Shown here piece by piece: positions 2,103 to 53,930 of a stretch of 55,819 nucleotides of DNA. The notes beneath the pieces were generated by a model. That model was not told the origin of the DNA, searched no databases, and saw only the letters and a list, made by a program, of their open reading frames with translations. The DNA lies in IMG/VR virus record IMGVR_UViG_3300044832_000059, positions 1 through 55,819 of that record; one strand, 5' to 3'. Source of the DNA: a virus (taxonomy: Duplodnaviria; Caudoviricetes). Both the position numbers and the translations under genes were made by a program. Positions within the stretch are counted from its first letter, which is position 1. Each line of letters begins with the position of its first letter.

Positions 2103-2478
2103 TGAGCTTCTTTACCTGCCCTTCTGTTGGTAATGCTATTCCTGAGTCCTTAGAAAGAAGCCGATTATATCGCATCTTTGCAATCTCTCCAACCAACTCC
2201 ATATCATGTATTGAGAGAACTGATAACCCACTTCGCTCAAGATCGGTAAGCGTTACAAGCATCTCCCTGAGTCTTTCCTCCATATGTCTCAGTTGCTCTT
2301 CGGTAAAATTAAAATCTTCAACCAATATCTGTTCAATTGCAAGCGTATATTCCTGTGCAGTCTCCATCATTGAAGTTCCTACTCGCTCAACTTCTTTGAA
2401 CGCAGCAATATGCTTCTCAGATAACTCCATCTTTCCGTTCTTTTTCTCAATTACTGGTAAGTTATTTTTCTTTTTCAT
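2095..2478 (-). CDS. Hypothetical helical protein
   Basis: ORF track; overlapping operon structure. Confidence 0.6.
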   Translation of the reverse strand: MKKKNNLPVIEKKNGKMELSEKHIAAFKEVERVGTSMMETAQEYTLAIEQILVEDFNFTEEQLRHMEERLREMLVTLTDLERSGLSVLSIHDMELVGEIAKMRYNRLLSKDSGIALPTEGQVKKLNG

Positions 2479-2689
2479 TTGGTGTTAAGAAAATGTTCTG
2501 TATAATACTGCATCGATACCCTATTGTCGCATCACCTTCAACTTTTGTTGATAAAATAATCTCTGTAACAGGTATCTTCTTTGGACTCCACATGGGAACA
2601 AGTATTGATTGTTCCTCAATAAACTGTGCATCCTGATCGAGAACTTCTATTCTCTGCCCATTCTTTGCATTAATCAAATAAGTAATCAT
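2462..2689 (-). CDS. Hypothetical protein
   Basis: ORF track; operon coupling. Confidence 0.55.
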   Translation of the reverse strand: MITYLINAKNGQRIEVLDQDAQFIEEQSILVPMWSPKKIPVTEIILSTKVEGDATIGYRCSIIQNIFLTPNEKEK

Positions 2690-2831
2690 TATTTCTTGTT
2701 CTCTTCTTACCGAAGTCCCTTATCCTACAAGCATTATCAAAATAAAGACGAGGAGGATACGAATGCTTTGACTGTTTCTCCTGCTTTATCACCTTTCCAC
2801 ATCCACAAGCGCATAGTCGTTCAGCAATCAT
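2670..2831 (-). CDS. Small CACGCG zinc-finger protein (53 aa, below track cutoff)
   Basis: MIAERLCACGCGKVIKQ...RLYFDNACRIRDF; first gene after the leftward promoter. Confidence 0.6.
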   Translation of the reverse strand: MIAERLCACGCGKVIKQEKQSKHSYPPRLYFDNACRIRDFGKKRTRNNDYLFD

Positions 2832-2842
2832 ACTTCTCCCTA

Positions 2843-2872
2843 GTTATAAACCAAAAAAGATAGGAATGTCAA
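2843..2872 (-). promoter_or_regulatory. Leftward sigma70-like promoter
   Basis: TTGACA (2872-2867), N18, TATAAC (2848-2843). Confidence 0.5.
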
Positions 2873-2891
2873 CTATCAATAGGGATCGATG

Positions 2892-2921
2892 TTGACACAT
2901 ATTATAGTAATACTATATACT
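2892..2921 (+). promoter_or_regulatory. Rightward sigma70-like promoter upstream of pentamer array C
   Basis: TTGACA (2892-2897), N18, TATACT (2916-2921). Confidence 0.65.
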
Positions 2922-2941
2922 ATGAAACAGGTATACCTACC

Positions 2942-3062
2942 GTCGGGGTAAGTTGTGTTGGGGTGGGATCGGGCATGGCAGTCAGGGTTAGTCTAGTCAA
3001 ATTATGTCAAGGCATGTTGTGGCAGTCATGGAGAGTTAGGTTATGGCAAGGAGAGTCATGAT
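2942..3062 (+). ncRNA. Pentamer-periodic (G[G/T]Y-NN) array C; candidate guide RNA
   Basis: GTC gg GGT aa GTT gt GTT gg GGT gg GAT cg GGC at GGCAGTC ag GGT ta GTC ta GTC aa ATT at GTC aa GGC at GTT gt GGCAGTC at GGA ga GTT ag GTT at GGC aa GGA ga GTC at. Delimiters at 2977 and 3021. Confidence 0.8.
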
Positions 3063-3080
3063 GAAAGGGGGTGAATAATA

Positions 3081-3443
3081 ATGAGTGAAGATGTATTAAA
3101 AAAATTTTCAAGTAATACTAATATTCTCAAGTTCAATGAGGATGGAGAGATCTCTGGAATATACAAAAAGGTGTATGAGGAAGATGATCCATTCAGTAAG
3201 GATGGAGGAAAAAGGCTTATTTATCTTATTAAGTCTGATGACGACAATAAGGAGAAGCAGCTTTCTTCAACATCAAAGCGACTTGCGAGAGCGATGTATG
3301 AATCAGGTGCAAATTTTGGGGATCATATCACGATTATGCGTTTTGGTGAAAAATACGAAACAGCATTTAAAGTGAAAGTGTCTGCAAAAGAACAAGTAAC
3401 TGAAACTGAAGAAGCAGTTCCTGATATCGCAGCAGACTTTTAA
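3081..3443 (+). CDS. Putative single-stranded DNA-binding (OB-fold-like) protein
   Basis: 120 aa, beta-rich pattern, acidic tail ending in Phe (EEAVPDIAADF); strong SD AAAGGGGGTGA. Confidence 0.55.
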   Translation: MSEDVLKKFSSNTNILKFNEDGEISGIYKKVYEEDDPFSKDGGKRLIYLIKSDDDNKEKQLSSTSKRLARAMYESGANFGDHITIMRFGEKYETAFKVKVSAKEQVTETEEAVPDIAADF

Positions 3444-3444
3444 G

Positions 3445-3560
3445 GGCAGTCATGGTGGGTCTAGTTATGTTATGTCAAGTCATTTTATGTTTTGGCAGTC
3501 ATGGAGCGTTGGGGCGAGTCATGGACAGGTTGGGAGCGGCAGGAATGGTTTCATGTCTAA
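3445..3560 (+). ncRNA. Pentamer-periodic array D; candidate guide RNA
   Basis: GGCAGTC at 3445 and 3494, GGCAGGA at 3538. Segments are 42 and 37 nt, e.g. at GGT gg GTC ta GTT at GTT at GTC aa GTC at TTT at GTT tt. Confidence 0.78.
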
Positions 3561-3596
3561 TCTGGGGTGTTCTTCGGTCACAGGAGGGCATCCCTG

Positions 3597-4217
3597 ATGA
3601 GGTATGAAGTAATTATGAAAGTAGGATCAAAAACGAGTTTACATTTAAAATCAGGCGCATACGCAGCAATGCTAGGAAGAATGCGTTGTTTTTCTTGTAG
3701 AAAAAAGATTGTTGTACTGTTAGGAGGTAAGATACAAGATCTTCTTTGGGAAGATAAATTTTATTGTGAAGGATGTATCTTGCAGGTATCTCATGGTATT
3801 AAAATGCCAAGACAAATCTTTAATCCAATTTATTGGATACCTTGTCCTATCGAAGGATGTAAAAAGTATCGCAAACGATCTTTTCCTTCATGCTCAGAAC
3901 ATTTTGTATTAGTACCAAGCAAAAATCCTCCTGGAACTGCAAAAAAACTGAGAAGAAAAATCTATTATGAAGTAAAAAGGAAACCAAAAGTAACTGATTC
4001 ATCATTTAATTCTCATGGTGATACAGGAACTCTTAAAAAAGACCTCGCTTTTTGTCAAAATTACGACTGTCCTGATAAAAAACCACTACTAAGAAAAGAA
4101 ATGTACAAAATGAGAGTTGGTAATCTGAGTTTACGACCAATGTACTTTTGCTCTGTATGGTGTAAATTTGTTATAAAGGGAGAGAATCCTTCTGAAAGAT
4201 ATAAAGAATGGGTTTGA
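3597..4217 (+). CDS. Cys-rich multi-zinc-finger basic protein
   Basis: Several CxxC/CxxxxC pairs and YFCSVWCK; ATG 3597 follows AGGAGG. Confidence 0.6.
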   Translation: MRYEVIMKVGSKTSLHLKSGAYAAMLGRMRCFSCRKKIVVLLGGKIQDLLWEDKFYCEGCILQVSHGIKMPRQIFNPIYWIPCPIEGCKKYRKRSFPSCSEHFVLVPSKNPPGTAKKLRRKIYYEVKRKPKVTDSSFNSHGDTGTLKKDLAFCQNYDCPDKKPLLRKEMYKMRVGNLSLRPMYFCSVWCKFVIKGENPSERYKEWV

Positions 4218-4344: not shown

Positions 4345-4869
4345 ATGTTTAAATTATTACACTCTCAACATAGGTATTCAGTAATCAAGCGTATAAAAAA
4401 AGACTCTTTAGGAAGAGAATACGTAATATGGGTATGTAAATCTTGTCCTCATCTTAAAATTAGATACATTAATTTAGAAAAGGGATAGAGCAGCAGAGTA
4501 GATTAACTGCAACCTACCGTAAGAACCATTGACAGGGATGTAACAAGCGGTTTCCCGTCCTTTAACTGTCAGTAAGTGTTCAGCTAGACATCTGTGAGGT
4601 GAAGACCAAGCCAGTGATGCTGATAATAAAAACAACGAGGTTCTGGTGTACTTATTCTTATAGGGAAGGAGAGAGTATATATACTCTAGTTTTGTCATGC
4701 AATATAAATACTATTTACTTTTAGAACTTGAAGTGAGAGTAAAATACAAAGAAAAGTTACTCAATAACTGGAAGAAAGGAGTACCTTTCTTTACTCTTGA
4801 GCCATATGAAAAGAAATACATTCTAACAATGTGTAAGAAAGATATTGATTGGGGACAATATAACAAAGT

Positions 4870-8227: not shown

Positions 8228-8467
8228 TCATTGTTTCCCCTCATCTCGTAATGTCTTGACATATTGTTCAAACGTAAAAAGCGTATCAATAAGAAAGTCC
8301 TGCTGTCTTTTGTTGAGAACTGAATAACTCTTTTTATCTGTCTCAATAATCGCTTTTGATAAGATAGAACATACCGCCATGAGTGATATAACTTGTGTCT
8401 GTAACTCCTCAAACTTATCTGAACCAGGCATAGTACTTGCTCCTCTCTTCATACTTGATAATGTCAA
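8228..8467 (-). CDS. Hypothetical protein
   Basis: ORF track. Confidence 0.4.
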   Translation of the reverse strand: MTLSSMKRGASTMPGSDKFEELQTQVISLMAVCSILSKAIIETDKKSYSVLNKRQQDFLIDTLFTFEQYVKTLRDEGKQ

Positions 8468-8933
8468 TTGGTAAGCCTACTTGCTTGCGTGTCCAATTAT
8501 AAAATATTCGTCCAGTTCTTCCATTCCCATCAAAGAACGGATGAATGTACTCATAAGCAATATGCTGATCTCGTATCATATCTGCCAGATCTATCTCATT
8601 AATCTTCTTTGTATTCCCTTCAACAATCGTTTCATTAATCGTACCAATTAACTCCTCAAGTGCTGGCTTAATCTTCCAATGATTTATCCCCTCTCGTCCC
8701 CCAATCCATACAGGGCCAGTTCTAAACCTCCCTTTCCATGAATCATCACAATCCCTTGTTCGCATAAGAATCTCATGCGTCTCAAGAATATTATTAAATG
8801 TTAACTTTGTGAATCTACTCAGATAATTCCATGCACGAATTGAATCATCAAGTGCCTCTTGTGACCACTCCTCCTCAATGTGATTAGACTCCTCAAGAAA
8901 GTTTGTTACCTGTAATGCGTTTGGTTCTTTCAT
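8415..8933 (-). CDS. fic: Fic/DOC family protein
   Basis: Canonical HPFFDGNGRTGR motif. Confidence 0.92.
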   Translation of the reverse strand: MKEPNALQVTNFLEESNHIEEEWSQEALDDSIRAWNYLSRFTKLTFNNILETHEILMRTRDCDDSWKGRFRTGPVWIGGREGINHWKIKPALEELIGTINETIVEGNTKKINEIDLADMIRDQHIAYEYIHPFFDGNGRTGRIFYNWTRKQVGLPIDIIKYEERSKYYAWFR

Positions 8934-10090: not shown

Positions 10091-11224
10091 TTATCTTGCG
10101 TAGATAATCTTTCTTGTCGATTGCTTTGACACTACCTTGTCAACTGCTCGCTGTGCCTCAATACATGAGGGGCACTCTCTCTTTTTGAGATGATTGCGAC
10201 AATGAACACAAAGCTTTTTTTCTTCTTTATCAATGAGTTTTTGTTTACTCTTTGAAGAATCAAAACTAGATCCACCACCAGGAGATAGGGAAAGTACTTG
10301 TTCGCCTTCAATAACTTCTGATATGCCCCTTGCCATGTCTCTTTGACTCTCTCTATTCATCCACCAATCAAGATAATCATCTTCCTCATCTATTGAGGGA
10401 TTTTTTGATTGATGCTTGGCATAGTCTCTTTGCCACTTGTTATAGTCAGACGCATAACTTCCCACGTATGTATCAGCACTAGAATACTTTGAACTACTTG
10501 CGTAATGCTCCGAAAAGTACGGCTTTGCTTGTATCGTTACTTTACTTACTGCAATTGACCCATTCAGTGAATAAAAGCTGTACTGTATATTCTGCCCCCC
10601 GTCAACAAACTGAAAACCTCTATGGCCCCTGAGTGCCTTACGCAAGTGATCTATATCACTGGAGTAATACACTTGATTGCCTCGTATCGCATAACTAAAC
10701 ACTTGGTCATGTACTGCTACATTAAGCGTATCAAGCTCTCTTTGATCCACGTAAGGAATAGCAAATGATCCTTGTAACTCTTTAAATGCATCAAACTTAT
10801 TTTTCTTATGATTCAAGAGATATCCAATGATTTGACTATCAACCTCATACTCGACCCCAAACTTTCTCTCAAGTTCAAAGAAATTACTCAGTACCCCGTT
10901 ATGAGTGAAAAAGTAATCACCCTCTTTAAATGGATGAGCGTTCTCACTTGTTACCGCACCATGCGTTGCAAACCGTGTATGTCCCAAAATCGTTATAAAC
11001 GGTTGACGACGATATGCACAAAGTAATGTTATAAGCTTTTGATCCTTGAAAAAGGTATCAGCTTCGACAATGTTTTTATAGATAATTGCCTTACTCGGCT
11101 CTTGTCCAATAAGCGCAAGCCCTGTACTATCACGACCTCGTGACACGTTGAGTTCGCCTAACTTCTTAATGATCCCCGTTGTTTGTTTTGTTGGATTGCC
11201 TGTAAATCCGTAAATACCGCACAT
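10091..11224 (-). CDS. Class II (Ntn) glutamine amidotransferase
   Basis: MCGIYG N-terminus, SRGRDSTG, GHTRFATHG, NAHPF, HNGV, VDSQ. Confidence 0.93.
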   Translation of the reverse strand: MCGIYGFTGNPTKQTTGIIKKLGELNVSRGRDSTGLALIGQEPSKAIIYKNIVEADTFFKDQKLITLLCAYRRQPFITILGHTRFATHGAVTSENAHPFKEGDYFFTHNGVLSNFFELERKFGVEYEVDSQIIGYLLNHKKNKFDAFKELQGSFAIPYVDQRELDTLNVAVHDQVFSYAIRGNQVYYSSDIDHLRKALRGHRGFQFVDGGQNIQYSFYSLNGSIAVSKVTIQAKPYFSEHYASSSKYSSADTYVGSYASDYNKWQRDYAKHQSKNPSIDEEDDYLDWWMNRESQRDMARGISEVIEGEQVLSLSPGGGSSFDSSKSKQKLIDKEEKKLCVHCRNHLKKRECPSCIEAQRAVDKVVSKQSTRKIIYAR

Positions 11225-11262
11225 AGTAAATAATTATAGGATAGTAGTAATGCTACTTAATC

Positions 11263-11712
11263 CTATAATGTCTTTTCACCTCCTTTCATAAATTGACCCT
11301 TATTGTTTCGCTTTCTTTGCATATTATGGTATTGAGCATGACATATCTTATGAGCCTTGGATATGTTATTCTTGATATATCCTATAGCGTTATCTATTCG
11401 ATGAATAATCAATGAAAATTCTATAGGTTTGTTACAAAATAGGCACACATTTGGTAGTTTCTCAATGTCTTCTTTTGTTACTGTTACTGTTCTGTTTTTG
11501 TATGATTCAGTGTGATTGATTCTCCAATTCATATTTTTGATAATTGCACTCCCTCTTTTACTTGCACATGCTTTACATTCTGGTCGCAAGCCGTCCGAGC
11601 TTCTTTTGTCCTTGTCAAATTGATAAGCATATCGTTTCTTCTTGCAGATACTACATGCTTTCTCAAGCATAAATTCTTTACCGCAATGTATACATAAATG
11701 GTTACATTCCAT
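11263..11712 (-). CDS. HNH-type homing endonuclease-like protein
   Basis: CSICK...DGLRPECKAC N-terminal domain; CLFC...IHRIDNAIGYIKNNI...H..CH. Confidence 0.75.
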   Translation of the reverse strand: MECNHLCIHCGKEFMLEKACSICKKKRYAYQFDKDKRSSDGLRPECKACASKRGSAIIKNMNWRINHTESYKNRTVTVTKEDIEKLPNVCLFCNKPIEFSLIIHRIDNAIGYIKNNISKAHKICHAQYHNMQRKRNNKGQFMKGGEKTL

Positions 11713-11793
11713 ATAAAACCATTATACTACACTTTTTTGCTTAATAATTCCCTCTAGGCTCTCAACTAGAGGAAACTATAAACAAACAAAGTA

Positions 11794-13032
11794 TTAACTT
11801 TGTAAATTTGCATACTCAGCCTCATAAGCTCTATTGATCGTTCTATAGTCCTGTTCAGCCTTTGTATATGTCTTTTGTGCCTTTTGTATCTTTTTAATGT
11901 TCTTAATGATTTTACCGGCACTTTCTTGCTGCTTGGCTAGATGATCGAATAAGAACTTATGCACTCGACCTTTGAAATAGACCTCTTGCTTCTCAGTCAG
12001 ACCTAACATATTGCATATATTTGTGATCTTTTGGTCTGAGATCTTTTGGTCAAACAACGCAGTCACTTCACGATGATTGTAATTTTTCAAACAATAGGTG
12101 AAGAACAAAAGCATCAAGTTTACCCACTCAATGACTTTCTTGTATTGCGTTGTCCCTGCATGTAACCGTATCTCAATCGTCCCATGTTGACTCAACGCTT
12201 GCAGATTCATCGTTTGATACCTGCCATTGTTTGTCGAACTTAATTGGTTGATAAGATTCTGTTTACCTCTCAAGAGCTTTCTTCCATTCTTTTGGTCATG
12301 AACATATTGCGAAAGATATCTTTTACAATACGTATTGTTAAATCTTGACCGTGGTTGCGTCGCAAGAAGAAAGTCTTCTATCGCACTCCACGTTAAAATA
12401 ATCCTATTCATGATAAGAGGCGTGAAAAAGCGTTTATTACTCACATGTAAATGAAACCCACATGATGTATTGATATAGACATCGTTGTCAGCAAATGCAT
12501 CACATAGTTTTTTCGTTTCCGCTTTTAGCTCTGTATACGTAAAAGGTCTTTCACCCTTGAACTCTACCCCTTCTGTGTCACTGTCAGTCTCAATTGACCC
12601 GTCACTGTCCCATTCAAATGGTAAGTTACTTACCGCACCCCGTAAATCATCCTCCTGCTCATCAGGTACTAAAGTCTCTAGCTCTATGCCTAACTTAAAG
12701 GATTTATAAGGAATTTTAGGAAGCTCACGTTGTTTAATAATAAAAGGTTTTTTTGTAATACTACTCACCCCCTTTAGTACTTCTGTTTTGTTAGTTTCAA
12801 CGTACGGGGATAACATGCAGTCAGACCATGACCACCTGCTTTGTGATTCGATTTCAATGCTTATCTCATATGAAGAACTATTGATTCTAATTATTGTCGC
12901 ATATCTGCCTATGAGGCTTTCCATGTCTCTATTAGTAGAGCAACAATTTTCTGTTCTTTCCCCATTAGCTCTATAACAATAGCCTGGTGGGTGTGTTTTT
13001 ATAATGACTCTATCGCCTATTTTGTAATTCAT
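11794..13032 (-). CDS. Putative amidoligase (COOH-NH2 ligase, Amidoligase_2-like)
   Basis: LGIELE, DSDGSI, GVEF, NTSCGFHLHVS, RY..MNL, GTIEIRLHAGT. Confidence 0.88.
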   Translation of the reverse strand: MNYKIGDRVIIKTHPPGYCYRANGERTENCCSTNRDMESLIGRYATIIRINSSSYEISIEIESQSRWSWSDCMLSPYVETNKTEVLKGVSSITKKPFIIKQRELPKIPYKSFKLGIELETLVPDEQEDDLRGAVSNLPFEWDSDGSIETDSDTEGVEFKGERPFTYTELKAETKKLCDAFADNDVYINTSCGFHLHVSNKRFFTPLIMNRIILTWSAIEDFLLATQPRSRFNNTYCKRYLSQYVHDQKNGRKLLRGKQNLINQLSSTNNGRYQTMNLQALSQHGTIEIRLHAGTTQYKKVIEWVNLMLLFFTYCLKNYNHREVTALFDQKISDQKITNICNMLGLTEKQEVYFKGRVHKFLFDHLAKQQESAGKIIKNIKKIQKAQKTYTKAEQDYRTINRAYEAEYANLQS

Positions 13033-32748: not shown

Positions 32749-34071
32749 ATGACATATTTAATATTATCACCCATCGCTCTCTCTCTTTTCCTTGTTAATA
32801 GGCTGGGAACCTCTAAGTCTGTTGATAAGGTTTATTTCTGGGTGGGAGACCCTTCTCTTCGTGCCACAGGTAAGCACATGGAGGACTACGAGGGGTATGA
32901 GAAGCTAGAGCTTGTTGATGACTACAATGAGGTGCTAAATGAGGAATCTAAGGATAATTTAATAATCTTTATTGATGATATTGGCATGGGAGAAACGGGG
33001 CATAGTCTTAGAAAGCAAGGATGGTCTGTTATCGGTGGCTCTCCTTTCGCAGACAAGATAGAAGATGAACGAGGTTATGCTCAGGAGGTTGTTCAGGGAA
33101 TCATGGAGGTCCCTGAAACATATGAGTTTGAGAGTTTTGATGATGGAATGAAATTTGCAAAGACCAGGAGTAAGGATGAGGTGTTCTTTTTTAAGCCAAA
33201 TGACTCACAAGTACCAAAAGATTATACGTATCGAGCGAAGAATATCAAGGATCTTGTCTCTGCACTCAAGAATTTCAAGGATGAATGGAAGTGGAAGGAA
33301 TCATTTCAGCTTCAGATGGAAGTTAAGGGGCAACTCATGGACTTCTCTTGTTTTATTGACAAGAATGGACAAATTCTTCCTAACTCTTTGATCTATTACT
33401 TTGAGAATAAGCCACTTATGAATGATGATGTTGGGCCACAAACAGGAGGAGCTATTGCTGTTGAATACGCTCACAAATTGGAAGGACAGTTTTATGAGAT
33501 CTTTCAAAAGCTCTTACCAAAACTGACAAGTGATGGCTATTATGGACAGATTGCTATCAACTGTATCATTGATGAAGAGACGAAGAAACCATACTTTTTA
33601 GAGTTTTGTGGTAGGGTTGGCTATCCTTCTCTTCCGGCAGACGTTACTTTGGTTGAGGATAAAGGAAAAACGGTTCACGACCTATTCCTGGCACTAGTTA
33701 CAGGTAGTCTGCCAAATCTCTTCCCAACCAATAAAATCGCAACAACGATCTGGATTGGTATTCCTCCATATCCTTTTAAGGAGGGGACAGATAAGAACAA
33801 GGGTGTGCCTATTTCCTGGGATAAGAAGTATGATAGCTACTTTTTCCCTTATTACGTGATGCATGATGAGAAGAAAGGTTTGGTTGCAGCAGGAGTTGGA
33901 GGGGAGATATTGCAAATTACTTGTTGTGATGTAACATTGAATGGTGCGGTATCGATGCTGATGGACACGTATCTTCCAACACTAAGACTCAAGAATGCAA
34001 TGTATCGAACGGACCTAGGCAAGGATGCACGAGATAGAATGAAGAAGTTGCAGGAGTGGAAAATTATATGA
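32749..34071 (+). CDS. PurD-like ATP-grasp ligase
   Basis: IGGS..ADKIEDER, FFKP, FENKPLMNDDVGPQTG, YFLEFCGRVGYP, MYRTDLG. Confidence 0.8.
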   Translation: MTYLILSPIALSLFLVNRLGTSKSVDKVYFWVGDPSLRATGKHMEDYEGYEKLELVDDYNEVLNEESKDNLIIFIDDIGMGETGHSLRKQGWSVIGGSPFADKIEDERGYAQEVVQGIMEVPETYEFESFDDGMKFAKTRSKDEVFFFKPNDSQVPKDYTYRAKNIKDLVSALKNFKDEWKWKESFQLQMEVKGQLMDFSCFIDKNGQILPNSLIYYFENKPLMNDDVGPQTGGAIAVEYAHKLEGQFYEIFQKLLPKLTSDGYYGQIAINCIIDEETKKPYFLEFCGRVGYPSLPADVTLVEDKGKTVHDLFLALVTGSLPNLFPTNKIATTIWIGIPPYPFKEGTDKNKGVPISWDKKYDSYFFPYYVMHDEKKGLVAAGVGGEILQITCCDVTLNGAVSMLMDTYLPTLRLKNAMYRTDLGKDARDRMKKLQEWKII

Positions 34072-34472
34072 GTAAAAAAATATTTGGAAGAGAATTGCTA
34101 GTTGATGCATATGGATGCAATGTTGAGGCTTTAAATAGCCTTGATATCTGTGCTGCTTTCTTAAAACAAGCAGTTGTTGTTCTTGAGGTATCGGAGCAAT
34201 CACCTCCCTTTGTCTTTGTCTCTCCTTTAAAGGGGCCACATGGCGAAGATTGGGCTGATAAAGCAGGTATATCAGGATGGATTCCACTTATTGAATCGGG
34301 TATACAAATTCATACGCTTACACCAAAGAAATTCTTATCAGTTGATTATTATACTTGCAGTAAGGTTGATGAGGGAGTTAAAAGGAAGCTCCTTGAGCTT
34401 GTTAAAGAGTATTTTCATCCAATAGTTATGGATTCCCAACTTATTGATCGAGGAGTGGACTATTATGATTGA
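34068..34472 (+). CDS. speD: S-adenosylmethionine decarboxylase-like pyruvoyl proenzyme
   Basis: FGRELLVDAYGC, GISG..PLIESGIQIHT (E-S self-cleavage site), SVDYYTCS. Confidence 0.85.
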   Translation: MSKKIFGRELLVDAYGCNVEALNSLDICAAFLKQAVVVLEVSEQSPPFVFVSPLKGPHGEDWADKAGISGWIPLIESGIQIHTLTPKKFLSVDYYTCSKVDEGVKRKLLELVKEYFHPIVMDSQLIDRGVDYYD

Positions 34473-40448: not shown

Positions 40449-41157
40449 CCCTCTTAAAATACTCCACATATTTACTTAATCCATAAGGACTAAGTGCTGG
40501 TGCAGTATTCACTTCACAAATAACTGCATGAGGAAGGGATATATCTGTTGGTTCACTCATAATGTCTACAGCTCCAAAATCAAGCTCTAGAGCTTTAATT
40601 GCCTTCTTTGCTAGTCGAATCACTTCAATGTCCCATTCATGCTGATACAGGTATCTGAATTTGAATCCCTTCTTATGATTCCAATTCTTTGCATGTAAAT
40701 CACCATTCTCTTTAATTGAAATTGCAATAAGCTTTCCTGAACCAATATGTACTCGATATTCTTTTGTTTTTGGGTAGTAAGGACTAAAATATTGTGCTCC
40801 TTTTCTTATTGCTCTTCTCACATCATAAATGTCATGACAGTAGAAGAACTTTCTTCCTCCCTTATGATGATCTGGTCGTGCGACGCAAGGGAACGTTTCA
40901 GGAGGAACAGAGAGAAGCTGAGGCGTTGGTAAGTCATTATTCATAAAGATACGTCTTGCGGTTTCTTTATTTGTTGCGTTTCTTACTGCTTGTGCTGAAT
41001 TGAGATAATTGCCTTGGGGTCCCGAAGTAGTTACTCCCCATCGTATAATTGTTGAAACAGGTGGCTTATAAGATGAATTGGGGTAGAAAAGAGAAAAGTC
41101 CAGCATTTCTGCTAGACTTTTGCTTGTCTTTGATTTAACACTAAAAATACCAATCAT
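40396..41157 (-). CDS. RimK-like ATP-grasp ligase (phage type)
   Basis: IIRWG, ATNK, EYRVHI, LDFGAVDI, EVNTAPAL. Confidence 0.9.
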   Translation of the reverse strand: MIGIFSVKSKTSKSLAEMLDFSLFYPNSSYKPPVSTIIRWGVTTSGPQGNYLNSAQAVRNATNKETARRIFMNNDLPTPQLLSVPPETFPCVARPDHHKGGRKFFYCHDIYDVRRAIRKGAQYFSPYYPKTKEYRVHIGSGKLIAISIKENGDLHAKNWNHKKGFKFRYLYQHEWDIEVIRLAKKAIKALELDFGAVDIMSEPTDISLPHAVICEVNTAPALSPYGLSKYVEYFKRAISENLSQSEDQRQQEH

Positions 41158-41171
41158 ATTCTCATATCCTT

Positions 41172-41417
41172 AACTGCCAAGACCTGCCTCGACAGAACTA
41201 AACACAACCCAACTTACCCTGACTGCCAATACACAACGGTACACAACACAACTCGCCACGACTGCCTGTACACTCCTTAACACTACCAGACTAACCCCGA
41301 CTGCCCTACCTGGACACAACACAACTCGCCACGACTGCCATGCATTGCCCCAACAGTCCCAGACCCTCCCTGACTGCCTTGCCATGACTAAACCCACCTT
41401 GACGGTCCTTGACTGCC
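41172..41417 (-). ncRNA. Pentamer-periodic array B (6 units); candidate guide RNA array
   Basis: Delimiters (GACTGCC on +) start at 41411, 41372, 41333, 41299, 41260, 41221 and 41172 (variant). Segments are 32, 32, 27, 32, 32 and 42 nt, e.g. aa GGA cc GTC aa GGT gg GTT ta GTC at GGC aa. Confidence 0.88.
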
Positions 41418-41423
41418 ACATAC

Positions 41424-41945
41424 TTATTTTTCTAGTTCAGATTCAATTTCTTTTAATTTCTCTTCGTTAATTATTCCATTTAATTCAGAAACCATTTTGT
41501 ATTTTTCCTGAGCATGTCTTATTTCACGAATAGCACTCCTTAATACAGCAGAATGTAATTTTTCATTGTTTAGTACTTGTTCGATAGGAAAGTATTTACG
41601 TACTTTCTTATCTTCCAAAGTAACTTGTACATTAAAGAATGCAGGTTTTTCTTTACCTTCTATGGTTACACGAACGCTATTGATGAGTAGACGAGCTTGC
41701 ATTAATCGGTATCGATCTCCAGCTCTCTTATCATCCCATTCAAAGATTCTATGAAGAGGAGATGTCTCTGATTTTGCTTCTTCGACAACATCTTGAGGTG
41801 TTAATTCTTCTCCATTTTTTGCAGCAAGAAGTTCTAAAGCCTTTTTATATTCTCCTCTTTTTGTGTTTTCTTTAATTTCAATGTAATCTTTTTTTGTTAA
41901 TGTTGATAGTAATCTATCATATCCTTGATATTTCATAATATTCAC
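41424..41945 (-). CDS. Accessory protein between arrays (LTP..VV..A....SPLH..FEWDD..A...YR..QAR.LI family)
   Basis: Recognisable phage motif; strong SD AAAGGGGGGTGA; arrays on both sides. Confidence 0.8.
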   Translation of the reverse strand: MNIMKYQGYDRLLSTLTKKDYIEIKENTKRGEYKKALELLAAKNGEELTPQDVVEEAKSETSPLHRIFEWDDKRAGDRYRLMQARLLINSVRVTIEGKEKPAFFNVQVTLEDKKVRKYFPIEQVLNNEKLHSAVLRSAIREIRHAQEKYKMVSELNGIINEEKLKEIESELEK

Positions 41946-41969
41946 CCCCCTTTACTAGAGTAGGACTTA

Positions 41970-42205
41970 CTTGCTGGTCCACACCTTGCCTTGACGCAAC
42001 TTGACGCAACTAGCCCAGACTGCCCTGACATACCCATCCACATCAAACCACTACATACCGAAACGGACCTTGCCTGGACTGCCATGCCCTACTGAGACAC
42101 AACCCAACTTGACATTCCCCGACTGCCACAACATGCCTTGACATAATTTGACTAGACTAACCCTGACTGCCAAGACCTGCCTCGCCCCAATTCACCATGA
42201 CTGCC
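41970..42205 (-). ncRNA. Pentamer-periodic array A (4 units plus tail); candidate guide RNA array
   Basis: Delimiters start at 42199, 42165, 42121, 42077 and 42018. Segments are 27, 37, 37 and 52 nt, then a tail tg GGC ta GTT gc GTC aa GTT gc GTC aa GGC aa GGT gt GGA. Confidence 0.88.
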
Positions 42206-42211
42206 AAGATA

Positions 42212-42250
42212 AGAAGAAGAGGTAATATGTAAAAGACTACCTCTTCTTCT
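42212..42250 (-). other. 13-bp perfect hairpin between the RAMP-like gene and array A
   Basis: AGAAGAAGAGGTA (42212-42224) / TACCTCTTCTTCT (42238-42250). Confidence 0.75.
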
Positions 42251-42258
42251 CGTTAAAA

Positions 42259-42864
42259 CTATTCATCAGTAGTTTCGATTTCGAACGTTCCATTATCGCC
42301 ATTTCGTTCTGGTCTCCATTCTCCAAGTCCTTGACTAAATCCTGCTCGTTGTAACAGATTAAGAACCTGTTCACTAGAGAGGATGTTGGCATCGAACTTA
42401 ATCATAAGTTCCATTGACCATCCTTCCACTTGTCCTCGGAAACGAATGTCGGCAGTTCCCATTCCTACAGTAACCATATCTTGTCTCATGGTTTTTTCCT
42501 TATAGGTAAGTGGAATGAATCCATCTTTATCTCCTTCGACAAAGAGTGCCCCACGAAGAATTGTCATTGGGACACCATTGATGAATCGTGCTGATCCGAC
42601 AATTGCTTGCTTAATATTTCGTGCTGGGAAAGCAATGTTTCCTTCTGAGTCGTAGTAGAAACTACTTTCGTATTCCTTTTCAGGATCACGAACCTCACGT
42701 CCTTTCTGAGCTTTTTTCATTTGCTTATCAAGGATCATTCTGATTGCTTTTTCGTCCCATTTATGAAAAATTAAGGGAGCAGTTCCGTTGATCTTAACTT
42801 TCATTAATTGAATGTTCATTGCGGGAATTGATAATCCCTGAACGTCTTTTTTTGCTATTGGCAT
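42259..42864 (-). CDS. Stand-alone RAMP/Cas7-like RNA-binding protein (candidate Vipr-type effector)
   Basis: N-terminal VKINGTAPLI strand, FPARNIKQAI (like Cas7 IPxxxxKGxxR), IRFR...WSMELMIKF, and C-terminal Gly loop AG...GLGEWRPERNGDNGTF; adjacent to the arrays. Confidence 0.78.
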   Translation of the reverse strand: MPIAKKDVQGLSIPAMNIQLMKVKINGTAPLIFHKWDEKAIRMILDKQMKKAQKGREVRDPEKEYESSFYYDSEGNIAFPARNIKQAIVGSARFINGVPMTILRGALFVEGDKDGFIPLTYKEKTMRQDMVTVGMGTADIRFRGQVEGWSMELMIKFDANILSSEQVLNLLQRAGFSQGLGEWRPERNGDNGTFEIETTDE

Positions 42865-42972
42865 AATATTGTTTCACCCCCTCTCAAATACTTAACTTGT
42901 TTCTGAAGAAGCGTTTCTGCCTAGAACGATGACAACTAGGCGGTAACTGTCTCATCTCCAGAGATAAATTAA

Positions 42973-44223: not shown

Positions 44224-44949
44224 TTAGTAAAACCTTATCTGGTTGGTTTTTAGGCCGTAATTGTAAATATCTTCAAGGTCACGAAGATATTCTTTTGTTG
44301 ATAATCGAGAACGCAGTCTCTCTCCTCGTTCAATAACTTTCTCTTGAAAAGTTTCTTTATCAACTTTACTCCATACCTTTTTGATTGCAGAGATGAAGTC
44401 TCGTGATCTCCATACCTGTCCTTCGGTATATGGTTTAAGTTTTGTCAAAGCTTGCGCTTCTTCATCAGCTTGTTTAAGAGATGTAACCTTAAACAATCCT
44501 GTTTTAAAGATGTATAATCGACCTCCTGACGAAATAGGAGACTCAGGTGATACGCCACTCAATAAGGAAACTGATACCGTTATCGGAAGATTATATTTAT
44601 CTAAGAAATCCTTAAGAATCATATATTCTTCGTTTTCTAGCTCAATATAACTGTCAAGATAATCTTGCAATGTCCATGGCTTTGTATTAACATTAAGACG
44701 ACGAACATCTTCAAGAGTTCCTTCTTCACGTTCAATGTAATAAAAGGGAACTTCAAGAATCTTTGCAGCTTCTAATCGATGTTGTCCATCAATAATTTTT
44801 CCGCTAGCTACGATAATGGGGTTTTCTTCAAGCATGTTTTTCTCCTGGATAGATTTAACCAAGTGACTGACATGACTTTTGTAGACCTTTCTGTTACCAA
44901 CAAAGGTATCAAATTGGTCGTAATTTGATGTTTTAACTATTGTATTCAT
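44224..44949 (-). CDS. ParB/Srx-like N-terminal domain protein
   Basis: GNR...HV..L..SI, NPIIV, IIDGQHRLEAAK, LN...KPW. Confidence 0.85.
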   Translation of the reverse strand: MNTIVKTSNYDQFDTFVGNRKVYKSHVSHLVKSIQEKNMLEENPIIVASGKIIDGQHRLEAAKILEVPFYYIEREEGTLEDVRRLNVNTKPWTLQDYLDSYIELENEEYMILKDFLDKYNLPITVSVSLLSGVSPESPISSGGRLYIFKTGLFKVTSLKQADEEAQALTKLKPYTEGQVWRSRDFISAIKKVWSKVDKETFQEKVIERGERLRSRLSTKEYLRDLEDIYNYGLKTNQIRFY

Positions 44950-47413: not shown

Positions 47414-48091
47414 CTAGAAGAGATTTGGTTTATTATGAGTTTTTGTTTTACTTGGAATACCCTTGTCATCAAAGGTAAGATACACAGAGTTTCTCCCAAA
47501 TCCTACATTCTTAATGTAGTCTTTCCTTGTTATTGCGAGATGCCTTCCTCCCTTTGCAATGCGTTGATGATATCCGTCGTCAACTCCATCAAAGGGAAAC
47601 TCTTCTAACGAATCCCTCCGAAAACCATAAACAGAAGAAACAAAATCATTAACAATATTACAATTAGGTCTTTCTTCCAAAATTTTGAATCGTTCATCAT
47701 TTGGGTCATAATTGTTGTAATTGAAAAGAGATATTGCTGAAACATCTTCATTGCTCTTAAGAGCATTTACCGCTGTAGAAAGCCATCCATCTTCAAAAGT
47801 AACATCTGTATCAATTTTGAATAAATATTCTCCTTCAGATACTCCTAGACAATTCTGAAATGACTTACCAACACCTCTATTCTTACCCCCAACAATAATA
47901 AGTTTTGAGAGTTTTTGTGCTCTCATAAAACTATACGCTATATCTACTGATTCATCCATTTCCCCTTCACTTCCATCAACGTTAACAATGATCTCACAAG
48001 GATAATCAACCGTTGCATGAAGTGTGTCAAGACAATTGATTAACATCTCTGGCCTTTTATATGAAAGAATGCATAAACTAGCAAGTCTCAT
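47414..48091 (-). CDS. Glycosyltransferase family 2
   Basis: LCILSYKRPE, IIVNVDGS, NRGVG, LFKIDTD, GVDD. Confidence 0.85.
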   Translation of the reverse strand: MRLASLCILSYKRPEMLINCLDTLHATVDYPCEIIVNVDGSEGEMDESVDIAYSFMRAQKLSKLIIVGGKNRGVGKSFQNCLGVSEGEYLFKIDTDVTFEDGWLSTAVNALKSNEDVSAISLFNYNNYDPNDERFKILEERPNCNIVNDFVSSVYGFRRDSLEEFPFDGVDDGYHQRIAKGGRHLAITRKDYIKNVGFGRNSVYLTFDDKGIPSKTKTHNKPNLF

Positions 48092-48729
48092 TTTACGTAT
48101 CCACTTACCTTTCTTGCTAGGAATGCATGGGCTGGTTGCTTTCTCCATCCATAAACGAGCTTATCATGTGCATAGTCAAGTTCCCATACGAACTCAAAGT
48201 CTTTATCTAGATATTCATGGATGACTTCAGGGTTAACGTTGTGTGCATGGGCTTCATGGGGGTGAGAGTAAGCATTATCAATTGCGTGAATCATTGCTAC
48301 ATATGCTCCAGGTTTCATAAATGTGTAAAGTTGTCGTAAGAATTCTTGTGGTCTGTCAAAATGGTCTAGCGCATTAGTAATAATAATGAGATCAGCAAAT
48401 TTCAGATCACCTTGTATATCTTCTGCTTTTTTACTGAGACCATTATAAATTGGGTAGTTCTTTTTGTATTCATCAATGAGGGGATCAATACGGGTTGTCA
48501 GTCGTGATTTGAGTACCGTTGAAACGCCACCAAACGGCCCACAACCGATGTCATACACATGCATGTCAGAAGTATCAAGCGCATCAAGTCCCATCTGTTT
48601 TCGCAGGAGAGGATAGCGGATAATCTCCCTGATCCTTTTATCTCTATTGATTTGTGAATCATCAGAAAACCAAGAATCAAGTTCAGATTTTTGCGTCTTA
48701 TCAAAATTATTTGCTTTTGTATTCATCAA
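48088..48729 (-). CDS. Class I SAM-dependent methyltransferase
   Basis: VYDIGCGPFGG, IDPL, NALDH, MKPGA. Confidence 0.88.
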   Translation of the reverse strand: MMNTKANNFDKTQKSELDSWFSDDSQINRDKRIREIIRYPLLRKQMGLDALDTSDMHVYDIGCGPFGGVSTVLKSRLTTRIDPLIDEYKKNYPIYNGLSKKAEDIQGDLKFADLIIITNALDHFDRPQEFLRQLYTFMKPGAYVAMIHAIDNAYSHPHEAHAHNVNPEVIHEYLDKDFEFVWELDYAHDKLVYGWRKQPAHAFLARKVSGYVK

Positions 48730-49756
48730 GCATTAATTGAATCCCCTGCTTGGGACTCACGGTTGGCTTCCACCCAAGTGCTTTTTGCACTTTTGTTGTA
48801 TCTGATATGTAAATTCGTTGATCTGCATGTCTCCAAGGTTTGAATTCGAGCGTCGCTCCCTTTCCTGATATATTTTCAATATAAGAAATTGCTTCGATAA
48901 GAGAAAGCGTATTATCAATACCTCCTCCAACATTGAAAACATTCCCCTTAACAGTACTAATCTTCTCTAGCTCATCAAGATAAAGATTTGCAACATCTGA
49001 ACCAAACAACATATCTCTTACCTGTTTACCATCTCCGTAAATATTGATCTTTCCATCTCCCATCCCAATAGATCGAATGAAGAAATCAATCCACCCTTGA
49101 TCTTCCACGCCTTTTTGATAAAGCCCATAGATGCAACTCATACGATTAATAACAACAGGAACATCATACGTGTGAAAGTATTCTTGACAGTACGTGTCCC
49201 CTGTAAGCTTTGATGCACCATAAGGTGAGTGTGGGTACTTTTGGAATCCGTCAGTTGTAAAGCCTTCGTTAATACCACGAGGCGTTACCCCATCCATCCA
49301 TCCTTCTTTTGGTTGGTTCCACTCATAACGAGTCTCTTGTTCTTTTAAGGGAATAGTGTTAATCATGTCAGAATAACACTTGTTTGTTGATGCGTAGATT
49401 ACGGGGATTTTACCATGAGTTCGTGAGTATTCAAGAACATTTATTGTTCCTTGGGCATTAACCTCGAAGTCATAGAGAGGATGAGCAATGGACCAAGGAA
49501 TACCAGGGTTTCCAGCTCCATGCCATATTCCGACTATTTCTCTCTTAGGTAGTCTTCCGAAATCTTCTTGATTTCTAACATCTCCTCTAAATATTTCTAC
49601 TCCATGTTTTTGTAAGATAGCAATGTTCTCTTCAGATCCTTTTCTTATTAAGGAATCAAAAGCAATTACTTCGTATCCTCTTCTTCTTGCTTCTAGGCTG
49701 ATATTTGTACCTATAAATCCAACTCCTCCAGTGCAAATTAAAGTACCTTTATTCAT
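48707..49756 (-). CDS. NAD-dependent epimerase/dehydratase, CDP-paratose 2-epimerase (RfbE)-like
   Basis: TGGVGFIG, YASTNKCY, SPYGASK, RMSCIYG..Q.GVEDQGW, GDGKQVRD, WR.ADQ. Confidence 0.9.
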   Translation of the reverse strand: MNKGTLICTGGVGFIGTNISLEARRRGYEVIAFDSLIRKGSEENIAILQKHGVEIFRGDVRNQEDFGRLPKREIVGIWHGAGNPGIPWSIAHPLYDFEVNAQGTINVLEYSRTHGKIPVIYASTNKCYSDMINTIPLKEQETRYEWNQPKEGWMDGVTPRGINEGFTTDGFQKYPHSPYGASKLTGDTYCQEYFHTYDVPVVINRMSCIYGLYQKGVEDQGWIDFFIRSIGMGDGKINIYGDGKQVRDMLFGSDVANLYLDELEKISTVKGNVFNVGGGIDNTLSLIEAISYIENISGKGATLEFKPWRHADQRIYISDTTKVQKALGWKPTVSPKQGIQLMLDEYKSK

Positions 49757-50238
49757 TTTAGAAACCTCACTCTTCCTCCCCACGTATCAGTTTGTCGATG
49801 ACAAGAAACACAAAGGGTTCTTCCATTATCTATTGCATATCGCAAATCAGGATACAAGCTCCATGGCTTAATATGATCTGCTTCCAGTTTACCTCCACGA
49901 GTATTACAGGTTTGGCAGGTGTAATCATCCCTCATAAAAACTGCGGTTCTCCATATGATGTAATCTTGTCTTTGCATTAACATTTGTCGTTCACTTTTAG
50001 TTCCACCCTTATAATTTGCGGGTCTTACTCCTACTCTTTGTGCCGACATCATTGCTTTAGATTCAAAAGAATGAGTTTTTCCTGTGAATGGATTTTTAAC
50101 AAAACTATTATGTCCTGTTATATATTTTTTACAACGTCCTTTATAAATAGTCGTAAAGTCTCCACATCCACAAGCGCACTTAATTGGTTCAGGGATGGGG
50201 TTTGTCATGAATCTACCGTTAGCTCCTCGTATTTTCAT
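49753..50238 (-). CDS. HNH homing endonuclease with NUMOD3-like motif
   Basis: GKTHSFESK..MS, WRTAVFMRDDYTCQTC, LEADHIKP, NGRTLCVSCH. Confidence 0.9.
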   Translation of the reverse strand: MKIRGANGRFMTNPIPEPIKCACGCGDFTTIYKGRCKKYITGHNSFVKNPFTGKTHSFESKAMMSAQRVGVRPANYKGGTKSERQMLMQRQDYIIWRTAVFMRDDYTCQTCNTRGGKLEADHIKPWSLYPDLRYAIDNGRTLCVSCHRQTDTWGGRVRFLK

Positions 50239-50253
50239 AAGATAGTAATAATG

Positions 50254-50760
50254 CTAAACAATTCCTTCATACTTTTCAATGAACAAATCAACATCTCGCA
50301 TGTATGATATAGCTACTTTAATTTCTTTGTCTTCCCATTCCCACCATTTAATAAGAGATAATCTCCTTATTTGTTCGTTAGTAAATCTCTTTCTTAATAC
50401 CTTCCAAGGGTTTCCGATTGCAACAGTATAGGGAGGGACATTTGATCCAATAACTGAATTTGAACCAATAATTGATCCGTCTCCAACTGTTACTCCTTCA
50501 AGAATCGAAACATCTTCTCCAATCCATACGTCATGTCCAACGGTAACTTTACCATCCATTTTAGAAGGATAGTAATCTACTCCCCAAACTTCTTTAAAAG
50601 GAAACTGAGTTACTGCTTGTGGGTTTTCAACACAAGGATGTTGCCCAGAGATAATCTTTAACCCTGACGCAATACTACAAAAGTTACCAAACGTTAACAA
50701 AACACCTTCATAGCATTTTATATCGTCTGGAATAAACGTATGCCTTCCTGCGATTATAAT
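50254..50760 (-). CDS. CatB/Vat-related hexapeptide O-acetyltransferase (start uncertain: ATT 50760 or ATG 50835)
   Basis: GNFCSIA, VGHDVWIG, GVTVGDGSIIG, VPPY....GNP, IKWWEW. Confidence 0.85.
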   Translation of the reverse strand: MIIAGRHTFIPDDIKCYEGVLLTFGNFCSIASGLKIISGQHPCVENPQAVTQFPFKEVWGVDYYPSKMDGKVTVGHDVWIGEDVSILEGVTVGDGSIIGSNSVIGSNVPPYTVAIGNPWKVLRKRFTNEQIRRLSLIKWWEWEDKEIKVAISYMRDVDLFIEKYEGIV

Positions 50761-50951
50761 GAGATGTTCCCCCCTCGAATGATGTAAATTCCTGCACCGA
50801 GAAAAATTACTCCAACAAGAACATTCCAATACCATGCTCCTAACCCAACACCAAAGAGAAAAGTAAGTCCAACTGCTGCTAGTAGTAACGCTATTCCTAC
50901 AAATGCCAAAATGATTCCAATTATCTTTATGATTATTTCTGATAAACTCAT
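50754..50951 (-). CDS. Small two-TM membrane protein
   Basis: Hydrophobic, 65 aa. Confidence 0.6.
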   Translation of the reverse strand: MSLSEIIIKIIGIILAFVGIALLLAAVGLTFLFGVGLGAWYWNVLVGVIFLGAGIYIIRGGNISL

Positions 50952-51769
50952 ATTATCTCACCCCATTTCTTATCTTTGTTAACCTCGTATATTCCCTTGT
51001 GAATGTTATCTTCTGATATCTTGCCATTTCTTTCTGCTGCATCATATATATTGTACTTGTAAAAGCTCTTATCATGCCACTGATGGATTACTGCAATATC
51101 AGAGAATTTACTTACTCCATGACCTATAAGCGCAAGCCTATTGAATAGATCAAAATCATCAAACCCATGCCCCTCAAAGCTTTCATCAAATCCCCCAACT
51201 TTGAGTAGCCATTCTTTTCTTGTTGCAAAGAGGACTCCAGCATTACAATGCTTCTCCCCTGTTATTCCCCAATCACTATCAGGTGCTTGATCGTTTTGGG
51301 GACGATGTGAATCAGTTAGCACTGCATAGGGGTGAGTGATAATCTTACGAGGATCTGCAAAGGATTCTTCTGGTAAGTTCTTATATATCTTCTCCCCCAT
51401 TGTCCATACTTGAGATGCAAGAATTGTATTATCTGGATATTCTTCCATCTTCTTTAAGAGTTGTTCAATCGTATTGCCAACATGAAGACCTTCTGGTTCT
51501 GTAAAAATGATAACATCACCTGTTGCTTGTTTAATGCCAACATTACGGGGAATACAAGAAATGCGTGGTTCAGTATGATCTATATAGATGTATCTCATAT
51601 CCACCCTGATAGACCAAATTGGCTCGATAAGATCCTGTGTTCCGTCAGTTGAACCATCATCTACGATGATTATTTCATCTGGTAAAACATCTTGGCAAAG
51701 AATAGTTTGTAATCCTCGATTAAGTTGTTCTTTACGATTATATGTACAAATTACTATAGACGTGCTCAT
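50948..51769 (-). CDS. Glycosyltransferase family 2
   Basis: SIVICTYNR, IIIVDDGSTD, RNVGI, GGFDESFEGHGFDD. Confidence 0.92.
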   Translation of the reverse strand: MSTSIVICTYNRKEQLNRGLQTILCQDVLPDEIIIVDDGSTDGTQDLIEPIWSIRVDMRYIYIDHTEPRISCIPRNVGIKQATGDVIIFTEPEGLHVGNTIEQLLKKMEEYPDNTILASQVWTMGEKIYKNLPEESFADPRKIITHPYAVLTDSHRPQNDQAPDSDWGITGEKHCNAGVLFATRKEWLLKVGGFDESFEGHGFDDFDLFNRLALIGHGVSKFSDIAVIHQWHDKSFYKYNIYDAAERNGKISEDNIHKGIYEVNKDKKWGEII

Positions 51770-52167: not shown

Positions 52168-52168
52168 A

Positions 52169-53928: not shown

Positions 53929-53930
53929 AA

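Follow-up and report, generated by a model that had tools for sequence, protein, structure and literature searches.

The window analyzed here, the entire 55,819-nt stretch of IMG/VR virus record IMGVR_UViG_3300044832_000059 (Duplodnaviria; Caudoviricetes), carries a gene for a stand-alone RAMP protein (vipr), a partner gene downstream of it, and four intergenic arrays of short units built in steps of five bases (Table 1). Judged by its sequence, this locus is a VIPR (Viral Interference Programmable Repeat) system, with the function of its guide RNAs, the vrRNAs, predicted. VIPR was described in 2026, and the available text of the discovery preprint distinguishes seven types (10.64898/2026.04.26.720920). 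Two of the four arrays, B and C, flank the partner gene next to vipr, and two, A and A′, lie near the other end of the window; one guide is present in identical form in array A and in array C. Both ends of the window consist of the same 127 nt (1-127 = 55693-55819), the only exact repeat in it longer than 52 nt. This terminal repeat closes the contig, which thus represents a whole phage genome of 55,692 bp. The virus record likewise lists direct terminal repeats and a completeness estimate of 100%. Counted through the genome ends, the distance between array A and vipr is 15.8 kb, and the two are on opposite strands.

As an earlier note on this DNA had observed, a 52-nt segment of array A is the exact reverse complement of a segment of array C, the atypical ATT triplet included, and the identity stops at the unit edges, with 0 bases of extension on either side. 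The note had described the surrounding stretches as guide arrays with delimiters; we identify them as VIPR vrRNA arrays, in which the 52 nt correspond to a whole guide unit together with its boundaries. The duplicated guide (A1 = C2) is 45 nt long and comprises nine pentamers with eight variable NN pairs, from which the published skip rule predicts a 23-bp gapped target. It is the second unit of the vipr-proximal array C and also the second unit of the remote array A. Three smaller repeats from the same note were likewise recovered: two units of array B begin with the same 26 nt (41241-41266 and 41314-41339, 100% identical), units C1 and B6 share an end made of a 13-nt variable part plus the constant delimiter, and a tandem 10-mer is present at 41991-42010 on the minus strand.

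The arrays have a strict architecture. The delimiter GGCAGTC occurs 17 times in the window compared with 3.39 expected (maximum of 10 in 100 shuffles), and 15 of the 17 copies fall within the four arrays, all on the sense strand of the flanking genes. A motif-free scan for seven consecutive steps of G-[G/T]-[C/T]-N-N found only 2942-3059 (+), 3439-3542 (+), 41169-41413 (−) and 41971-42201 (−), which scored at least 19/21, with a maximum of 18 in 20 shuffles. The start-to-start spacing of the delimiters is 34, 39, 44, 49 or 59 nt, always 5n+4, and the 12 delimited units are all multiples of five (35, 40, 45, 50 or 60 nt) only when the G of GGCA[G]TC is assigned to both neighboring units. Specifically, each unit reads [GTC-NN][G-K-Y-NN]n[GGC-AG], its last G being the first G of the next unit, such that neighboring vrRNAs overlap by 1 nt in 12 of 12 delimited units. 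Over 81 inner pentamers the information at positions 1 to 5 is 1.55, 0.95, 0.57, 0.16 and 0.25 bits, a profile indicating three fixed letters followed by two free letters; the second scaffold letter is T in 49, G in 31 and A in 1.

This layout matches what has been published on VIPR. In the available text of two preprints (10.64898/2026.04.26.720920; 10.64898/2026.04.26.720927), Vipr protomers line a vrRNA of GGY-NN pentamers, hiding GGY and presenting NN, and the NN pairs read double-stranded DNA, skipping every third base, with binding repressing transcription. The accessible part of the former also gives related consensus repeats (NNNGG, YNNNG and NNNNG) and, in the legend to its fig. S18, "staggered" arrays with a 1-nt overlap. 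The window has pentamer repeats beside vipr, and its G-K-Y scaffold can be placed among such related consensus forms.

Table 1. Positions of the array units, genes and other features discussed in the text
Feature	Position	Strand	Description
52-nt copy 1	2976..3027	+	1 nt, delimiter, guide unit A1 and next delimiter
52-nt copy 2	42121..42172	−	Unit C2 with both delimiters
Promoter-like site	2892..2921	+	TTGACA-18 nt-TATACT; ~20 nt before first unit of array A; 11/12 consensus letters
Array A (remote)	2942..3064	+	Three units; pentamer parse, periodicity scan, X2 contig
A0	2942-2981	+	40 nt
A1	2981-3025	+	45 nt; duplicated guide
A2	3025-about 3064	+	No closing GGCAG; runs into ribosome-binding site of ORF 3081
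ORF 3081	3081..3443	+	120 residues; between arrays A and A′
Array A′ (remote)	3445..3542	+	Opening GGCAG, then two units
Ap1	3449-3498	+	50 nt
Ap2	3498-3542	+	45 nt
Array B	41169..41417	−	Downstream of partner gene; B1-B6 of 40, 40, 35, 40, 40 and 50 nt
Array B stub	runs into start codon at 41157	−	After the six delimited units
Partner gene (vap-like)	41427-41945	−	173 residues from GTG or 170 from ATG; phrog_15946
Array C	41966..42205	−	Between vipr and partner gene; five units
C1	42167-42201	−	35 nt
C2	42123-42167	−	45 nt; duplicated guide
C3	42079-42123	−	45 nt
C4	42020-42079	−	60 nt
C5	about 41966-42020	−	Contains the tandem 10-mer
vipr	42262-42864	−	201 residues; stand-alone RAMP (Cas7-like)
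ParB-like gene	44224..44949	−	phrog_12305, E 3.1e-26; 1.4 kb upstream of vipr

The identity of Vipr rests on a profile of 25 homologues, which matches PDB entry 36pp_D, "SUSP1 Vipr protein," with an E value of 7.6e-10 over 187 residues, the sole solved structure matched. The aligned G-loop reads G-V-G-D-W-R-P in SUSP1 and G-L-G-E-W-R-P in the window, and the histidine of the first strand is also aligned. Foldseek searches with an AlphaFold (AF2) model of the window protein (predicted local distance difference test score, pLDDT, of 78.2) returned 96 chains at E ≤ 0.001, the best of which were Csm3/Cas7 subunits of type III and type VII complexes (E 1.6e-6 and weaker). We collected 1941 Vipr homologues, none of which is named. 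The window has one vipr copy, and Pfam searches of its 83 open reading frames (ORFs) found no Cas1, integrase, invertase, resolvase or Nop family and no cas family of any kind. The profile match in a genome lacking cas families is that of a stand-alone RAMP. The partner protein, with invariant H, F, W, A and R residues in a block around "FEWDD," was modeled by AF2 (pLDDT of 86.7), gave no Foldseek match at E ≤ 0.001 and belongs to no Pfam family. Its gene, which may correspond to one of the published accessory genes vap1-6, accompanies vipr in 43 of 55 vipr-bearing fetched loci, and homologues of the two genes lie beside arrays in 14 of the first 127 loci.

Runs containing most of the window are soil metagenomes from three studies. 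We examined a k=31 assembly of X1, a run that may represent the source sample, together with contigs from X2 and X3, each from a different study. Together with the window, they make it probable that the guide A1 = C2 of this VIPR system was recently copied whole between arrays by an exchange that uses the homology of the delimiters. All 37 variable letters of the unit are identical in A1 and C2, including the drift-prone scaffold letters, while the units flanking the two copies are unrelated or 74 to 87% alike, with related units standing in a different order in the two arrays. The X2 strain provides a second, smaller case. It differs from the window at 3028, 3029, 3033 and 3034, which comprise all N letters of the first two A2 pentamers; the start of A2 equals that of C3, the unit after the second copy of the guide, in X2 and that of Ap2 in the window, and the remainder of the unit is the same in both strains. 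Compared letter by letter, A2 thus occurs in two mosaic forms, and the 5′ patch of each matches some other unit of the genome. The likeness of X2 to array C continues 9 nt past the delimiter and stops inside the unit, and the delimiters therefore look like homology at which an exchange starts rather than fixed cut sites. Three shared segments are anchored at a unit boundary; over 300 pentamer shuffles the mean was 0.21 and the highest count 3. Taken together, the identical letters (scaffold included), the differing neighbors and the X2 patch favor a recent non-reciprocal copy over an old duplication. In the proposed mechanism, the guide would have passed from one array into the other, in either direction, by non-reciprocal homologous exchange, either gene conversion or template switching, with the constant delimiters supplying the homology. 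The same exchange, combined with slippage by 5 nt, would reshuffle guide repertoires without a Cas1-type integrase.

The repeat could be an error of the metagenome assembly from which the window derives, the assembler having written the unit twice, an outcome that the earlier note had named as refuting its observation; we give it hardly any credence. In X1 the 52-mer (2976-3027) forms a separate node of 34.9x depth compared with 19.7x and 20.2x for the two long pieces. One of these (16,555 nt) stops at 3005 and at its opposite end aligns to the minus strand of 2976-3005; the other (39,153 nt) begins at 2998, its opposite end aligning to the minus strand of 2998-3027. Their lengths correspond exactly to the two arcs obtained when a 55,692-bp circle is opened at both copies of the 52-mer, and they tile this circle only if the unit is present twice. 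A piece in X3 breaks at the same place, starting at 2998, and a single 939-nt contig of X2 (2126-3064) bridges the unit, independently confirming its context in array A. The same graphs bear on the suggestion that recombination between the inverted 52-bp copies flips the intervening segment and that the population consists of two isomers, in which case the array A promoter would drive C3 to C5, the partner gene and array B, and the vipr operon would run into A2 and ORF 3081. The breakpoints would lie in non-coding arrays and cut no gene. The X1 graph at k=31, a circle with an inverted repeat, fits both isomers equally and so cannot settle the matter. In X3 a contig match ends at 3027 and continues as C3 text, yet such a loose end is equally expected from an ordinary copy of array C and decides nothing. 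Parts of the stretch that lack contig cover in X3 and X4 carry no information either. No inversion joint was seen in the assemblies, X2 bridges the unit in the window arrangement, none of the 83 ORFs belongs to an invertase, resolvase or integrase family, and general recombination would be rare at 52 bp. We therefore regard an inversion switch as distinctly improbable.

A further reading is that the tracts are not guides at all. On this reading, G/T-rich leader elements would bind some other RNA- or DNA-binding protein (as in a TRAP-like ring, a CsrA-type sponge or a ParB centromere, for example), and the 52-nt repeat would be a duplicated regulatory module. The arrays do sit in 5′ leaders or between co-directional genes, and a ParB-like gene is nearby, but the tracts accompany a Vipr homologue in phages whose G+C content ranges from 37 to 70%, with the same delimiter and 5n+4 spacing, the alternation of three fixed letters with two free ones agrees with the published vrRNA code, and spacings of 34 to 59 nt keep no single face of the DNA helix, making this reading very improbable. 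Readings as TRAP-like, CsrA-sponge, rut, G-quadruplex or ParB-centromere sequences were dropped on the homology of Vipr. The most substantial alternative to recent copying is an old duplication of the arrays (A/A′ with C/B), after which all units drifted except one that purifying selection kept for the sake of its especially important target. Indeed, 11 of the 17 segments of at least 9 nt shared among units lie at equal offset in both units, and the likeness is 87% over 30 nt between Ap2 and C1 and 74% over 34 nt between A0 and C3; these equal offsets and likenesses indicate that the units are paralogues. Selection on a guide, however, would constrain the N letters but no more than the class of each scaffold letter, leaving G/T at position 2 and C/T at position 3 free, whereas no scaffold letter differs between the two copies and the atypical ATT is kept. 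Scaffold letters did change in the related pair C1/Ap2, in which, of the three differences over the first 20 nt, two affect scaffold letters and one an N letter, and the order of related units differs between the arrays. Survival of one unit from an old duplication thus appears unlikely, and a recent whole-guide copy remains the reading we prefer.

The earlier note had also proposed a comparison of arrays among related genomes. A two-delimiter pattern scan of IMG/VR gave 127 loci, a set contaminated by coding repeats whose spacings were multiples of 9. Requiring 5n+4 spacing and a conserved G at position 1 left 24 locus-strands, the window minus strand among them; the rest were coding repeats or too short. 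The same delimiter, spacing and five-base rhythm occur in viral contigs across the G+C range given above. The arrays stand at a single locus beside vipr in all seven other records covered by pattern search, three of which are complete, and a motif-free scan of these three again found one array locus each. The closest relatives within reach (L128 = L138) have a Vipr 74% identical to that of the window and entirely different guide content; a further relative, P0003, is 82% identical and lies on a 55,227-nt contig. No window guide was common to the loci fetched at that point beyond the delimiter (best blastn-short matches of 13 to 25 nt), and a blastn search with 40900-42900 found no match among phage records. 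The vipr-partner pair is present in 33 phage records, comprising 27 from Mycobacterium, 5 from Gordonia and 1 cyanophage. In Escherichia and Salmonella phage records no tblastn match to the partner gene was found, though vipr itself is present in 77 records of Escherichia and 17 of Salmonella phages. The Vipr nearest to that of the window in the prokaryote genome collection (L307; 57% identical) lies on a 42-kb contig of a metagenome-assembled genome titled Candidatus Peribacteria, with the partner gene downstream; this contig could be a binned phage, and the match is too weak to name a host.

Twelve Cheoctovirus phages with the same gene pair, in each of which we compared the one array upstream of vipr, contain 7 distinct arrays, and the differences among them are of the kinds that the earlier note had proposed. 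Exactly one 59-nt unit separates ByChance from SwagPigglett and James, with the same delimiter and first letters on both sides, and Saal and Gorge differ from the same two phages by one 5-nt pentamer. A change of the delimiter GGCAG to GGCTG in Donkeykong (L296) fuses two units into one 59-nt unit, and its array has extra units. Replaced blocks of units and single N-position changes also occur, the latter illustrated by Zizzle and Brocalys, which differ at one N position, while Quico has mostly different guides within the same frame. As separate observations, the Donkeykong array contains a 30-nt internal tandem duplication, and in LastJedi, Clifton, Pippy and Zizzle (L297-L299 and L301; 469-657) a 189-nt coding sequence annotated as "hypothetical protein" lies on the array upstream of vipr.

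Several results weigh against a recent copy as a general process, or against the guide function it presupposes. Copying between two distant arrays was observed once, and no whole-unit duplicate was found in the 23 other array loci (~3 kb each), two of which show partial runs of 3 to 4 pentamers. The 17 shared segments of at least 9 nt are within the range of shuffles (mean of 11.8, maximum of 22). The X2 contig is continuous through the 52-mer, so that X2 may lack the second copy or have it in another form. With a Vipr just ~37% identical to that of the window, Cheoctovirus belongs to a different lineage, and its arrays serve only as an analogy. As to targets, neither in the window nor in 180 fetched loci (421,985 nt) did any guide exceed the best score reached by shuffled guides, and the exact gapped pattern of the duplicated guide has more than 118 matches in IMG/VR, with a median G+C fraction of 0.31, a number that chance predicts for an A/T-rich pattern. 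A cluster of 10 near-identical contigs among these matches is most simply one abundant phage. One RNA run (X10) contained more than a trace of the window's words (share of 0.06). By analogy with SUSP1, one Vipr protomer would cover each 5-nt guide step, hiding G-[G/T]-[C/T] and presenting the two variable letters, and these would pair with DNA with every third target base skipped, binding silencing transcription. The same guide made from two transcription units would provide redundancy in dose or timing. The promoter-like site upstream of array A is a lead and no proof, since sites of this kind are no more numerous in the region than in shuffles.

With these points in view, the proposal that guides diversify by delimiter-anchored recombination and slippage stands in part. 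The X2 patch supports exchange between arrays, and indels of units and pentamers occur, but the breakpoints need not lie at the delimiters. Likewise, recombination redistributes guides, while new specificities need another source, and N-position changes were seen. That Cas1-type acquisition is not involved agrees with the lack of any Cas1 or integrase family among the 83 ORFs. In a broader version, VIPR arrays would renew and spread their guides by delimiter-anchored, integrase-free conversion of whole guides between scattered arrays, standing in for CRISPR adaptation in this older system, and the inverted copies would also allow two isomers that swap promoters; this version is speculative, and we hold it to be rather doubtful.

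Comparison with known systems places the locus closest to the published staggered VIPR arrays, as given in the available preprint text. The two share a stand-alone Vipr RAMP with one partner gene, flanking arrays of three fixed and two free letters, the 1-nt overlap, carriage by phages and the lack of cas adaptation genes. They differ in the scaffold, which is G-K-Y here and GGY there, and in the second pair of arrays, which in the window lies 15.8 kb away on the opposite strand and has a guide in common with the first. The Type II VIPR of the Escherichia phage SUSP1 resembles the window locus in its homologous Vipr, including the G-loop and strand-1 histidine noted above, and in the pentamer code. 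In contrast, SUSP1 guides, according to the available text, are ~100 nt long with 9 to 16 repeats and a pseudoknot tail (10.64898/2026.04.26.720920), whereas the window units have 35 to 60 nt, 7 to 12 pentamers, a GGC-AG end and no tail; SUSP1-type phages also differ in the partner gene. Solo or orphan vrRNAs have been reported from satellites and VIPR-null phages (10.64898/2026.10.15.759431, available portion). Like the remote arrays, these are vrRNA genes away from vipr that rely on Vipr made elsewhere; unlike them, the remote arrays of the window share a genome with vipr. One of the remote guides duplicates a guide next to vipr exactly and is thus no decoy or anti-VIPR guide. The loci of Cheoctovirus (Brocalys, Saal, Donkeykong and others) and Gordonia phages have the vipr-partner pair and GGC-NN arrays with GGCAG boundaries directly upstream of vipr, but their Vipr is more distant, as given above, their genomes are GC-rich, and they are annotated only as hypothetical proteins. 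No array was found in the stretch after the partner gene of Cheoctovirus, within the locus only.

The backbone of type III CRISPR complexes, in which Csm3/Cas7 lines the CRISPR RNA, is similar in fold, in having one protomer per fixed step and in guide lengths of whole steps. It differs in a step of 6 rather than 5 nt, and the window lacks repeat-spacer arrays, Cas1/Cas2, Cas6 and Cas10. CRISPR-Cas was rejected as an identification: no cas family is present, the constant part is ~11 nt, the "spacers" carry the 5-nt scaffold, and Rfam, at its gathering threshold, gave only a transfer RNA (tRNA), tRNA-Gln, in the window. TIGR-Tas systems, in the available text of PMC12045711, combine a Nop-domain Tas protein with dual-spacer arrays that yield 36-nt tigRNAs or with stem-loop units bearing box C/D. 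These were also rejected, there being no Nop family among the 83 ORFs, and the units have 35 to 60 nt in 5-nt steps with no edge/loop repeat pair.

Other features touch the arrays and the vipr locus. Two ORFs overlie arrays (83 residues, 41170-41421, minus strand; 51 residues, 3452-3607, plus strand) and are almost certainly no genes. Units C1 and B6 (41174-41223) end with an in-frame mini-unit, GGCAG GTCTT GGCAG, whose boundary has no overlap (GGCAGGTC instead of GGCAGTC) and which may represent a guide remnant one pentamer long or else an alternative stop. ORF 3081 has no Pfam or PHROG match and no relative in viral contigs searched by peptide patterns or in the fetched loci. Homologues of the ParB-like gene lie just upstream of vipr in L140 (1771-2415), L138 (1918-2382) and L128, the latter two being one phage; the gene may be part of the VIPR locus.

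The remainder of the genome, which has ~38% G+C, encodes a large terminase, a P22/SU10-type portal with adaptor, a capsid protein and a CHAP lysin (Pfam/PHROG), together with a long glycosyltransferase/methyltransferase/epimerase block and the one tRNA-Gln. This block (47414-55407, minus strand) comprises five family-2 or family-1 glycosyltransferases, an NAD-dependent epimerase/dehydratase, a hexapeptide acyltransferase, methyltransferases and an HNH endonuclease; such a bulk of sugar-modification genes is uncommon for a 56-kb phage and may serve modification of DNA or of surface glycans. A Class-II glutamine amidotransferase, an amidoligase_2 gene and a tRNA-methyltransferase-HUP-like protein (a weak match, E 0.0058) are encoded at 10091-13032 (minus strand), and an S-adenosylmethionine-decarboxylase-like gene lies within the structural block at 34056-34472 (plus strand), a set that we take to resemble phage base-hypermodification genes. 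The early-gene block contains a Fic/DOC family protein (8415-8933, minus strand; E 8.2e-11). An X2 contig lacks 90 nt of the window (4364-4453), a strain-level indel in a stretch with only short ORFs.

The VIPR system itself is already published. What is new is that one guide was probably copied whole between dispersed arrays of opposite orientation, with signs of patchwise exchange. The available portions of three 2026 VIPR preprints contain no mention of remote arrays that share a guide with the main array in a vipr-bearing phage. In the available main text of the discovery preprint (10.64898/2026.04.26.720920), taken without its supplements, recombination does not appear, acquisition appears only under funding and duplication only for the evolution of RAMP proteins; in the accessible part of the competition preprint (10.64898/2026.10.15.759431), no passage on array evolution was found. 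The duplicated guide adds a modest new detail on how the guide sets of VIPR systems change. The window offers a clean natural example in which a whole guide was copied between arrays 15.8 kb apart, with a strain variant beside it that resembles a second patch, and the cultured mycobacteriophages form a tractable set for following unit indels and pentamer slippage. On the practical side, phage records annotate such arrays as small hypothetical genes. Should the pattern prove general, it would show how guide repertoires stay in motion in an RNA-guided system that has no Cas1.

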